Of a DNA stretch of 48,591 bases, positions 29,158-32,633 are shown one piece after another. The notes beneath the pieces were generated by a model. It did not search any database. It was not told where the DNA came from and was given only the letters and a program-made list of their open reading frames with translations. The translations under genes and the position numbers were made by a program. The stretch comes from a virus, in UHGV virus genome UHGV-0185643, one strand, 5' to 3'. Numbering within the stretch: position 1 is the stretch's first letter; every line of letters starts with the position of its first letter.

Positions 29158-29376
29158 CTACGCAGTATCGCCGTCAGCCGGTGAGGCAGCTTCAACCACA
29201 ACCACGTGTGACATCTGGCTTTGCGCAGTTTTTTGCGCAGCTGGCTTTTTGATATAGCGCCGCGCAGATGTGTAATTCAGTCCCTGCTCTTCGCACCAAT
29301 CTTTCGGGGAAATACCTGATTTGGCATGGTCGGACAGGAACCGTTGCTGAAGCTCGCCCCAGTCCGGTTTTGCCAT
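29158..29376 (-). CDS. Small putative DNA-binding (HTH) protein
   Basis: MAKPDWGELQQRFLSDHAKSGISPKDWCEEQGLNYTSARRYIKK looks like a helix-turn-helix. Confidence 0.4.
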   Translation of the reverse strand: MAKPDWGELQQRFLSDHAKSGISPKDWCEEQGLNYTSARRYIKKPAAQKTAQSQMSHVVVVEAASPADGDTA

Positions 29377-29466
29377 GATTATTCACCAAGTGATCAATAT
29401 CTATTATCGTAAGGAGGAATAACGTGTATTTTACAAAGTTTGTATTTTTATGCTCAGAGCGTAACC

Positions 29467-29730
29467 ATGATCATCGAAGAAGCTAGAGGCTTTTTATTTC
29501 AACAAGGTATGCTGGAAGAATGTGTTAAACATCCTATTTATATAATTAACGGAAGTACGGATAAGCAGGATGACCCAGTGGTTTTATCTGAATATCTAAT
29601 CATGATAAATAGCAACGGGGACACCATTGCTGGGCGTTCACCAAATAGTCAATGGAGCATGTACCCCATCGCTATTAAAGACACGCACCCTAATATAACA
29701 AGTCATCTGCACGCTATAACTATCCCATAA
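29467..29730 (+). CDS. Hypothetical protein (87 aa), AT-rich, convergent with Rz
   Basis: ORF from an internal ATG; weak RBS. Confidence 0.3.
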   Translation: MIIEEARGFLFQQGMLEECVKHPIYIINGSTDKQDDPVVLSEYLIMINSNGDTIAGRSPNSQWSMYPIAIKDTHPNITSHLHAITIP

Positions 29731-29732
29731 TT

Positions 29733-30293
29733 TTATTGGGCGGCATTCGCGTTGACTTGTCTCAGCATTTCAATTTCCCGGATGCCCGCTAGCTGGTTAT
29801 TCGCCTTCTCAATGGTAGCCAGCAGCGGATTAATCCATAGAACAGCCTGACAGTACGTTATTGAGCTGGCGGCAGCGGTGCTATCACCGGCTGCGTCAGC
29901 GTTCCCGGTATCGGGTTGCATTGCGCTGGCACGTAAACGGTACGCGTATTTGAGCAGCCCACCAGCAACATCAGCAGGCACAGGCAGATCACAGTTTTTT
30001 TCACGTCGTAGAATCTCCCGGTATTTGATGACTGTTCTCTCTGTGCCGGCATCTATCAGCGAATTCATGCGGCTGGCGTTCTCTGCTACTTGGTTAAACC
30101 GGTTGAAGTTGAAAGCCTGTGTAGTTATTACCGTCGCCTGTAATGCGTTATCGCTGCGCAGTACCCGGTTGTCATTCTCGAACGCGGTCAGCGCCGCATT
30201 GCTGCGTACCAGCAGAACACAGAGCACCGCAATGATGGTTACGACGACCACCAGCAGAATCGCGACAATCGTAATTTTGCTGGTTTTCATCAA
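29733..30293 (-). CDS. i-spanin (Rz-like)
   Basis: N-terminal TM helix [23 protein letters not shown]; start overlaps the endolysin stop; contains an embedded lipoprotein ORF in another frame. Confidence 0.6.
29858..30004 (-). CDS. o-spanin (Rz1-like lipoprotein) embedded in the Rz gene, GTG start
   Basis: In-frame GTG gives [19 protein letters not shown], a lipoprotein signal peptide with lipobox LVGC; Pro-rich mature part. Confidence 0.6.
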   Translation of the reverse strand: MKKTVICLCLLMLLVGCSNTRTVYVPAQCNPIPGTLTQPVIAPLPPAQ

Positions 30294-30862
30294 AATACCC
30301 CCGGAACTGATACCGGAATGCCTGGGTTAAGCGGCCCGAGCCCATCACCAAGAACCTGCGGTTTTTCTGCCCACAGGCAAACTTCACGCTCAATCTCACG
30401 CCGGGTGATTAAACCCTTCCACTGTTTGCCACCGGCATATGTCCAGCGCCGTAATTGTTCGCAAGCCCCTTTTGTGTCGCCCAGGTTGATTTTGCGTAGC
30501 AGCGTGGAGGTTTTGAAGTTGCCAGCACCGACGTTGTACGCGAATGAGTAAAGTGCACCCCGCATTGTTGCCGGGATCGGAACCTTGATGTAGGGGTCAA
30601 TCTGACGTGCGATGGTATTCAGATCTTTTGTGAGCAGAATGGCACACTCTGTCTCGGTGTACGTCTTCCCGATTTTGACGTCGCTGCCAGTGTGCCCGTA
30701 GCATACCGTCCAAACCCCAACTACATCCCGATAAGGCTGATAGCGCACACCTTCAAGGCCATCATTACCCGTTGGACCAATAATCAACGCCGCTGCGATA
30801 GCAATAGCGCCAGCGGGTATAGCTGCAATAACGCTATTCTTCAGCTTTGGTGGCATAGCCAT
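30290..30862 (-). CDS. SAR endolysin (GH24, phage-21 R-like lysozyme)
   Basis: N-terminal Gly/Ala-rich weakly hydrophobic SAR helix [20 protein letters not shown] followed by [18 protein letters not shown] with E-8aa-D-5aa-T catalytic spacing. Confidence 0.8.
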
Positions 30863-31112
30863 TGCGCCGATCCTCCCGTTCTTTCCAGCGGAAATACCAG
30901 TTCACTGCACAGGTAATAACTGTGCATGCGATACCGACAATAATTGCCCAGTCGCTCAGGCTTAACCCTGCAATTCTGTCGGCCAACATCCAGGACACCT
31001 CTTTTGCTGTTTTAGCTGTTTCGGCATATGCCTTCGCTGATACACCGCAGCCGGTCAGCGTGGTTCCTGTTCCATATGAAAGTCTGCTGTAAATGGTGCT
31101 CATTCTGGTCAT
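30834..31112 (-). CDS. Pinholin-like holin (S21-like) with dual-start motif MTRM
   Basis: GGAGGTGA SD 7 nt upstream of ATG at 31112; two in-frame Mets (M1, M4) separated by a basic residue; two TMDs; C-terminal basic tail resembling S21. Confidence 0.7.
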
Positions 31113-31220
31113 AGCCTCACCTCCGATTTTTCGGATGGCGCTGTGTGTGATGAAAGGGTCAGGCTTCACGGGCTGGATTTATCAACAAAGCACGTAGTAA
31201 TTGATTCCCGTGAGCCTGAA

Positions 31221-31248
31221 ATGAAAAAGGCCGCCATTTGGCAGCCTC
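31221..31248 (-). terminator. Terminator-like hairpin between the Q-junction lipoprotein gene and the lysis genes (tR'-like candidate)
   Basis: Imperfect stem followed on the minus strand by a U5 run. Confidence 0.4.
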
Positions 31249-31492: not shown

Positions 31493-31738
31493 CTATCGGC
31501 ATGAAGCGCTGGTACTGCATTGTAGTGTATCAGTAGGCACCCATTTACCATTGCTACATACGAATTTCTTCACTCCAGGAAAACCACCTGAAGTTGCACA
31601 CGTATAGCATTTCTCTTGCCCATTTACACATGCAGATTGTATTTGGTTGGGTGATTTATCAATTGTGGAAGAGTTTGTGCTGCATGCTGATAGAAAAAAC
31701 GCTGATAAAACAGTGGAGTAAAAAATTATCTTATGCAT
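31493..31738 (-). CDS. Cysteine-rich small lipoprotein (81 aa, lipobox LSAC) moron at the Q-lysis junction
   Basis: Signal peptide MHKIIFYSTVLSAFFLSAC; six further Cys; embedded in a strongly AT-rich segment. Confidence 0.6.
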   Translation of the reverse strand: MHKIIFYSTVLSAFFLSACSTNSSTIDKSPNQIQSACVNGQEKCYTCATSGGFPGVKKFVCSNGKWVPTDTLQCSTSASCR

Positions 31739-31943
31739 TTTTTATACCTTCATAAGATTATTAATATTATATATTTATCATTATAGGCGCCTTTAAAAAT
31801 CCTTCCAACCGACATTCAGAATGCTTTTTCTTACTCTCCAGAAACGCAAAAACCCAAGGCGTCAACCTCAGGCTTGAAAACTCATTTACTGCCAGTGCAT
31901 ACAACAATGGCACAATATCAGATTTACACGAAATATATCCATT

Positions 31944-32633
31944 TCAGTTCGGTTTTGCAAGACTTACATCCAAATTTGTCGCCTTTTGTTGTGAACGTGA
32001 TCGCGAAACAGAAAGGAGCGCCTGATTATCAAGGTGCACGAATTCTTGTTTCATCGCCAGCCAGTGCGGGAGGTAGGTTTCAGTCCAAGTTGGCTTTGAT
32101 ACCCCTACCAGTTGCGCCAGCTGCTGGTACTCGTATGTGCTGCGCCCTGCTAGTTCTGCTTTCACATCCTGAGCAGCAAGCCAAATTAACGCCTTCAACC
32201 GTTCGATGGTTTTACCAGCTATCTTTCGAGACCCCATCTGCGACTTGAATTCAGCCCACGCCCACTGAGTAATCAACACCTGACTCTCCCAGCTTACGTT
32301 CTCGCTGTAGTTCCACAGTAGCCAGGCCTTCTGGGGTTCTTCAAGTGACATCAGCGCCCGGCGCCACGATGCGGTGTAGAATTCTACCGGCTGCACCAGG
32401 GGAATATGTGAACCCTTGGCATGCGACTGTTTGCCCGGTATTGGTGGGTTATCCAGCGTAATCATTTTCCCGGTCACTTCATCATACACACGGAGCTTCT
32501 TACGTTTAAACGTTCCCGTATCAAACTGGGCGTTCTCAAGCCACGCCATCAACTGCCCTTTCGTCGCACCACTTAAATCGGCGGTGGCCACCATCAGCTG
32601 CTGGCGCACGTATTCGAGAAATTGAGTGTTCAT
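31944..32633 (-). CDS. Putative late-gene antiterminator (Q-like by position)
   Basis: 229 aa ORF between the nin genes and the lysis cassette; no Zn-finger cysteines, so family assignment is uncertain. Confidence 0.45.
   Translation of the reverse strand: MNTQFLEYVRQQLMVATADLSGATKGQLMAWLENAQFDTGTFKRKKLRVYDEVTGKMITLDNPPIPGKQSHAKGSHIPLVQPVEFYTASWRRALMSLEEPQKAWLLWNYSENVSWESQVLITQWAWAEFKSQMGSRKIAGKTIERLKALIWLAAQDVKAELAGRSTYEYQQLAQLVGVSKPTWTETYLPHWLAMKQEFVHLDNQALLSVSRSRSQQKATNLDVSLAKPN

Follow-up and report, generated by a model that had tools for sequence, protein, structure and literature searches.

An HK225-like lysis cassette with a dual-start holin, a SAR-type endolysin and nested spanin genes in a lambda-like prophage genome

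The virus genome UHGV-0185643, a stretch of 48,591 nucleotides (nt) referred to here at its full length as the window, carries a four-gene host-lysis cassette on the minus strand at positions 29733..31112. All four open reading frames (ORFs) were located: a holin, an endolysin, an inner-membrane spanin (i-spanin, Rz) and an outer-membrane spanin (o-spanin, Rz1) nested within the i-spanin gene. The cassette is a real, intact and coherent lysis unit of a lambda-like prophage, ordinary in kind and closest to that of phage HK225. We are highly confident that it is the late-gene lysis unit of a mosaic lambdoid prophage and that it would act through a holin, a signal-anchor-release (SAR) endolysin and a spanin complex. 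The host of this prophage is probably Citrobacter or a close relative.

An earlier note on this DNA, made from its letters, had described the same four-gene anatomy, with a dual-start holin preceded by a strong Shine-Dalgarno (SD) sequence, an endolysin with a Gly/Ala-rich SAR helix and an E-8-D-5-T catalytic triad, and an o-spanin starting at GTG inside Rz. It had also described the cassette as grafted onto a lambda-like tail and a Rac-like early region. Each of these descriptions is borne out by the results below; for the last of them, the structural genes of the window resemble those of HK639 (82%) and its RecE/RecT early region resembles those of mEp237, HK225 and Gifsy. The gene structures and homologies, the conservation of the dual start, of an RNA hairpin and of the Rz1 frame, and the association of the holin with SAR endolysins were established directly.

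The four ORF calls are not due to chance, because family scans against Pfam and PHROGs match them: the holin matches PF16080 (E=1.7e-11) and phrog_20 (E=2.9e-21), the endolysin PF00959 (E=4.4e-46), Rz phrog_214 (E=2.1e-52) and Rz1 phrog_456 (E=2.7e-7). A scan of the four proteins against NCBIfam returned no meaningful family for any of them. The layout of the cassette and of the features discussed below is given in Table 1.

Table 1 Features of the lysis cassette and of the upstream antiterminator region (aa, amino acids; TMD, transmembrane domain).
Feature	Position	Strand	Description
Holin gene	30834..31112	minus	92 aa from Met1; start MTRMSTIY
Holin dual products		minus	Met1 (31112): 92 aa, putative antiholin; Met4 (31103): 89 aa, putative holin; Arg3 is an extra positive charge
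Holin segments		minus	Weakly hydrophobic Gly/Thr/Ser/Ala-rich segment, residues ~11-30; strong TMD, residues 55-74; basic C-tail
RNA hairpin	31118..31140	minus	CGCC-A-UCCGA / AAAA / UCGGA-GGUG; 3' arm contains the holin SD GGAGG (31124..31120)
Endolysin gene	30290..30862	minus	190 aa; 29-nt overlap with the holin 3' end
SAR helix	residues 10-29 (30835..30776)	minus	Hydrophobic, Gly/Ala-rich; aligns with R21 residues 8-27
Endolysin tail	residues 168-190 (30293..30361)	minus	23 aa, Pro/Gly-rich; consensus KPQ.L.DG.GPLNPG.P...PGVF
Rz (i-spanin) gene	29733..30290	minus	185 aa; ATG overlaps the endolysin stop (TGATG); N-terminal TMD ~6-28; periplasmic domain with Cys100 and Cys147
Rz1 (o-spanin) gene	29858..30004	minus	48 aa; GTG start; nested in the +1 frame of Rz; lipobox LLVG-C17, Ser at +2; mature 32 aa, 25% Pro, second Cys C29
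Antiterminator Q gene	31944..32633	minus	Upstream of the cassette; PF06323, E=2e-100; would drive late transcription into the cassette
Q-associated signals	promoter-like 31960..31932; terminator-like hairpin 31875..31850	minus	Consensus matches only

The holin gene offers two Met starts behind a single SD: GGAGG lies 7 nt before ATG1 (31112..31110), and ATG4 follows at 31103..31101. Met1 and Met4 are each at least 90% conserved among relatives, and all 43 genomic loci have a basic residue, Arg or Lys, at position 3; these loci show 55-100% identity and come from Citrobacter, Kluyvera, Klebsiella, Yokenella, Phytobacter, Pectobacterium and Symbiopectobacterium. The dual start is also found in phage Mulock, and the start of EssD, the S21-like holin of the prophage DLP12, reads MKSM in parallel with the MTRM of the window. 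An identical holin is present in several Citrobacter species. The protein scores above the Pfam cut-offs for both PF16080 (HP1 holin family; 44.3 bits, cut-off 28.8) and PF04971 (P21 holin S; 31.6 bits, cut-off 26), which makes it a member of holin superfamily II, with both matches spanning residues ~38-80 only, i.e. the second TMD (TMD2) and the basic tail. Its relatives are named 'HP1 family phage holin' by NCBI. A longer, 111-aa holin ORF from GTG 31169, which appears in one JGI gene call (P0003), was rejected, since the sequence upstream of ATG1 diverges like non-coding DNA in relatives and since the SD and the hairpin directly precede ATG1.

As judged from its sequence, the endolysin is an R21-type SAR endolysin. 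It aligns end to end, SAR helix included, with the lysozyme of phage 21 (PDB 3HDE, E=3.2e-87) and with RrrD of DLP12 (4ZPU, E=1.7e-86), is 76% identical to RrrD/R21, and scores 156.7 bits against PF00959 (GH24 lysozyme). The E-8-D-5-T triad is formed by E37, D46 and T52, which align with the triad of R21 and are invariant in 41 sequences. The segment at residues 10-29 has the flanking charges of a SAR helix and, like its counterpart in RrrD, is marginally hydrophobic, with Kyte-Doolittle hydropathy (KD) values of 2.47 versus 2.11 and free energies (dG) of 0.13 versus 0.78, respectively. Because of the 76% identity to R21/RrrD, release from the membrane in dependence on the proton-motive force (PMF), followed by refolding, would be expected of this enzyme. 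Its start is ambiguous: Met1 (30862) has the better SD spacing, and Met3 (30856) aligns with Met1 of R21 and is invariant in the family. Public records differ accordingly, since one of HK225 (L001) and Escherichia coli OW1E2 (L002) uses Met1 and the other Met3.

The spanins have a different affiliation. Rz, whose TMD has a dG sum of -6.2, gave no match to the Pfam Rz family (PF03245) at E<=0.1, and BLASTP against RzpD of DLP12 gave E=2.8; Rz1 is similar to RzoD in the signal peptide and lipobox only. By sequence comparison, the spanins of the window lie outside the Rz-Rz1 family of lambda and phage 21 (PF03245, PF06085) and within the embedded family of HK225, ZF40 and mEp237, which were grouped as one embedded two-component spanin family by Kongari et al. 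2018 (PMC6139136). Cys100 and Cys147 of Rz are invariant in 55 of 55 sequences, and every distinct Rz1 frame of the HK225 type that was listed has C29; such conserved cysteines are expected for disulfide-linked spanin complexes.

The GTG of Rz1 lies 286 nt into Rz, in the +1 frame. Of 83 related loci, 79 begin Rz1 with GTG and about three with ATG; a fourth apparent ATG, that of L018, is a pattern artefact. Translation of the nested frame, and its start at this GTG, are indicated because the codon-position diversity shifts there to the pattern of the +1 frame. Third-position diversity of Rz, at 0.43-0.46 outside the overlap, falls to 0.095-0.10 once the GTG is reached; by Rz codon position, diversity is 0.22/0.05/0.09 in the overlap versus 0.25/0.16/0.46 outside, and from the GTG the first positions of Rz, which are the third positions of Rz1, become the most variable. 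The earlier note had named an untranslated Rz1 ORF as an outcome that would speak against its reading, and this coding signature points the other way. A start at the in-frame ATG at 30052, yielding a 64-aa precursor, deserves mention, given that the window and 60 of the 83 relatives have this ATG and that the frame is open from it to the GTG. It is nevertheless extremely improbable: third-position diversity of Rz stays normal (0.38) over the 48 nt from ATG to GTG and drops only from the GTG, 18 of the 83 loci have a stop just upstream, between both positions, and hence no upstream in-frame start, the few ATG starts among relatives fall exactly at the GTG codon, no SD precedes the upstream ATG whereas GGGAGA lies 10 nt before the GTG, and the curated o-spanin of HK225 has 48 aa. 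A comparable doubt could be raised about the N-terminal segment of the endolysin, which might be a cleavable signal peptide or a permanent anchor; it is somewhat more hydrophobic than that of RrrD, as the values above indicate, and its small residues (AIA-A) could resemble a cleavage site. However, each residue of the segment has its counterpart in the homologous SAR helix of R21, which is retained in the full-length structure 3HDE, and the segment consists of 55% Gly, Ala, Ser or Thr without any Cys, which leaves this alternative highly improbable. The cassette as a whole might also be a non-functional, decaying remnant of a cryptic prophage, with only a 72-aa fragment resembling the N-terminus of the small terminase found 3' of Rz and with the prophage known here from its sequence alone. 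Against such decay, no damage is seen in the four frames or their overlaps, and the SDs, lipobox, catalytic triad and cysteines are intact as well; the frames are under purifying selection across relatives, and the window contains a full complement of structural and early genes; we regard it as very unlikely.

The mode of action of the holin is less settled. Pinholins of the S21 type are defined by heptameric pinholes of ~2 nm and by no release of cytoplasmic endolysin (PMC9636201), and definitions of the pinholin/SAR pathway and of the dual-start antiholin have likewise been given (PMC9636201, PMC12642591). From sequence comparison we infer that the holin of the window is a pinholin, as the earlier note had called it; in support, a SAR-type endolysin comes next in every intact relative. 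The downstream endolysins carry a hydrophobic, SAR-like segment at the N-terminus in 39 of 39 intact genomic loci and in ~77 of ~77 viral-contig loci, and the endolysins 3' of the holin relatives (about 115 loci) are of at least four types, none of them soluble. The dual start and the SAR-type partner named in that note thus stand, whereas small holes and release of the first TMD (TMD1) are predicted properties. Several observations weigh against the pinholin. Canonical large-hole holins can also serve SAR endolysins, and the association is therefore necessary but insufficient for a pinholin; moreover, the holin relatives on viral contigs are 98-100% identical and contribute few independent lineages beyond the genome set. 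Topology prediction, which had been proposed as a check, is clear for TMD2 of the holin (dG 1.2, KD 1.9), but the N-terminal segment of the holin is very weakly hydrophobic, more so than TMD1 of EssD/S21 (19-residue dG sum +9.0 versus +6.5; KD 0.26 versus 0.59). A two-TMD, SAR-like topology is consequently not secure, because the first segment is so weak and because a charged insertion of ~19 aa, absent from S21, separates it from TMD2.

The holin could instead be of the canonical class II kind, an HP1-family protein whose holes are large and non-specific, with the depolarisation caused by any holin being enough to free the SAR endolysin. This account would fit the better Pfam match to the HP1 holin family than to P21 S, the low identity to EssD/S21 (28%, over TMD2 and the C-tail), the insertion after the first segment, and a TMD2 that is 3 residues shorter in the multiple alignment; in addition, the authors who described Mulock termed its homologous holin, paired with a SAR endolysin, just a class II holin (PMC6856289). 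It fits less well with the lack of any soluble endolysin neighbour across the about 115 loci and the at least four endolysin types, with the dual start and its basic residue, which parallel the 71/68 arrangement of S21, and with the N-terminal Gly/Thr/Ser-rich segment, which parallels TMD1 of S21 in the alignment and resembles it in composition (65% versus 55% Gly, Ala, Ser or Thr). We consider large holes possible but rather unlikely, and retain the pinholin as the preferred interpretation.

The hairpin that contains the holin SD in its 3' arm is directly 5' of ATG1 and is part of the centroid fold of the leader. Folding of 59 distinct homologous leaders gave this hairpin in nearly every case, and in 30 distinct leaders 93.3% of the cells of the alignment are paired, versus 37-47% in slid controls. 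Compensatory changes occur at 3 of the 9 pairs, across genera, and variation is mostly confined to the loop. Counting against this evidence, the compensatory changes are few (6 cells) and the 3' arm is constrained anyway as the SD. The fold z-score of the whole leader (-0.57) is not significant, and only the local hairpin is meaningful, by covariation. The conserved hairpin sequesters the holin SD and is a candidate regulator of the choice between the Met1 and Met4 starts; it is a new, if minor, observation. In lambda, the sdi stem-loop sets the S107:S105 ratio, and the dual start of lambda S with this stem-loop is said to have been described by Blasi et al. in 1989-1990 and by Chang et al. 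in 1995. The two systems would share two Met starts split by a basic residue and a stem-loop at the ribosome-binding site that possibly sets the ratio of the products; in contrast, lambda S belongs to class I, has three TMDs, makes large holes and is unrelated in sequence to the holin of the window.

A second minor observation that is new here concerns the C-terminus of the endolysin, which extends 23-25 residues beyond that of phage 21 R in a tail that is absent from R21/RrrD. When 17 distinct nucleotide sequences of the tail are compared, the sites that vary are distributed 8/9/22 over the three codon positions, with many synonymous changes in the conserved half GPLNPG.P...PGVF; the tail is under purifying selection. 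It is carried by ~40 protein clusters from Citrobacter, Kluyvera, Enterobacter and others. The tail belongs to the endolysin, because it is found with two unrelated i-spanin types, and for the same reason a spanin-linked read-through was rejected as its origin. An AlphaFold2 model of the endolysin, based on a 41-sequence alignment, was too poor to use (mean pLDDT 54, tail below 40), and the tail looks disordered. It is conceivable, although we hold this only tentatively and would sooner doubt it, that the tail is a functional add-on marking a widespread subfamily of R21-type SAR endolysins, that it might affect how the enzyme is released, where it localises or how active it is in the periplasm, and that together with the SD hairpin it adds regulatory layers beyond the phage 21 paradigm.

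Taken together, these features are consistent with the following course of lysis. Late transcripts antiterminated by Q would yield the four lysis proteins, with the single holin mRNA giving two products, a 92-aa antiholin from Met1 and an 89-aa active holin from Met4. Arg3 of the longer form would retard the release of its N-terminal segment and thereby account for its antiholin action, and the hairpin that buries the SD probably sets the ratio of the two forms. The holin would build up in the inner membrane until, at a defined time, it collapses the PMF, most likely through small, S21-like holes. The endolysin would meanwhile have been exported by Sec and held tethered and inactive through its SAR helix; upon depolarisation it would be freed into the periplasm, refold and cleave the murein. 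The i-spanin, anchored by its inner-membrane TMD, and the lipoprotein o-spanin in the outer membrane would form a disulfide-linked bridge spanning the periplasm, and once the murein is gone this complex would fuse or disrupt the outer membrane. Hole size, TMD1 release, PMF dependence, lipidation and timing are points that we infer.

Among isolated phages, the closest cassette is that of HK225 (NC_019717; holin gp67, endolysin gp68, Rz-like spanin gp69), with 86% nucleotide identity over 95% of the cassette. Its four genes have the same order and overlaps, its endolysin likewise has 190 aa with the tail, and its curated o-spanin, of 48 aa with a mature form of 32 aa, starts at the same 286-nt offset as in the window (Kongari et al. 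2018, PMC6139136). The two cassettes differ in the centre of the endolysin and at the ends of Rz, which diverge (Rz has 178 aa in HK225 versus 185 aa), and in the interval from Q to the holin, which holds a hypothetical gene in reverse orientation in HK225 and a lipoprotein ORF in the window. The holin is also shared with mEp237, in which the holin region is 97% identical. Cassettes of E. coli prophages reach 87-88% nucleotide identity, and a 49.9-kb IMG/VR contig carries an identical Rz and holin.

Phage 21 and DLP12 (S21/EssD, R21/RrrD, Rz/Rz1 or RzpD/RzoD) provide the paradigm. The window shares with them the gene order, the dual start with a basic residue, the SAR helix and E-D-T triad of the endolysin, and a spanin embedded in the +1 frame. 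It differs in the holin (92 aa with the insertion, versus 71 aa), in its unrelated Rz and largely dissimilar Rz1, and in the extra tail of the endolysin; in DLP12, moreover, essD and rrrD share the boundary base only (essD end 2114, rrrD start 2114, L084), versus a 29-nt overlap in the window. The label 'phage-21-type', which had been given to the whole cassette, therefore holds by descent for the endolysin only, the holin being remote and Rz unrelated. Klebsiella phage Mulock is similar in another combination: it has a homologous holin with an MTKM dual start, the same SD hairpin with a compensatory change in the stem, and an R21-like SAR endolysin, but this endolysin has no tail (167 aa) and its spanins, of the SfV type, are overlapped rather than embedded.

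The discovery value of the cassette is small, since its proteins belong to four known families and the nearest cassette, that of HK225, has already been curated, down to the embedded o-spanin that its annotation lacks. For annotation, the cassette is of some use. PGAP/GenBank records of close relatives, i.e. HK225, E. coli OW1E2 and other RefSeq entries, omit Rz1, and RefSeq records of E. coli label the i-spanin 'hypothetical protein'; the comparative tests used here amount to a clean in-silico demonstration of the translation of a nested gene that starts at GTG. The hairpin at the SD and the endolysin tail, which is under selection, could refine the view of lysis timing in the large HP1-family holin group.

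A number of observations concern the holin gene in other genomes and the neighbourhood of the cassette. In Symbiopectobacterium (loci L191-L204 and L210) the holin gene is multi-copy, with 8 copies in S. purcellii and 7 in S. sp. RP, and several copies are truncated or without a downstream endolysin; these many copies, several of them defective, suggest that the symbionts hold numerous decaying prophages. An Rfam scan of the whole window gave no match, and no tRNAs were found in it. Between Q/tR' and the holin gene, at the position that the Shiga toxin (Stx) genes occupy in Stx phages, lies an ORF for an 81-aa Cys-rich lipoprotein (31493..31738, minus strand) with the lipobox FLSAC. No Pfam match was obtained for it, nor any tblastn match in 50,697 phage records, and its PHROG match is marginal and below threshold (phrog_8846, E=0.0074). 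It looks like a moron, because a promoter-like site (31808..31780) and a terminator-like hairpin (31248..31227) of its own accompany it. A 96-aa ORF with a TTG start (29440..29730, plus strand), without a Pfam or PHROGs match, runs antisense to the late genes and abuts the Rz stop. The 72-aa ORF 3' of the lysis genes (29158..29376, minus strand) resembles small terminase subunits (phrog_51) over their first ~54 residues only, with E. coli matches of ~160 nt, and is either a truncated remnant or a short helix-turn-helix protein.

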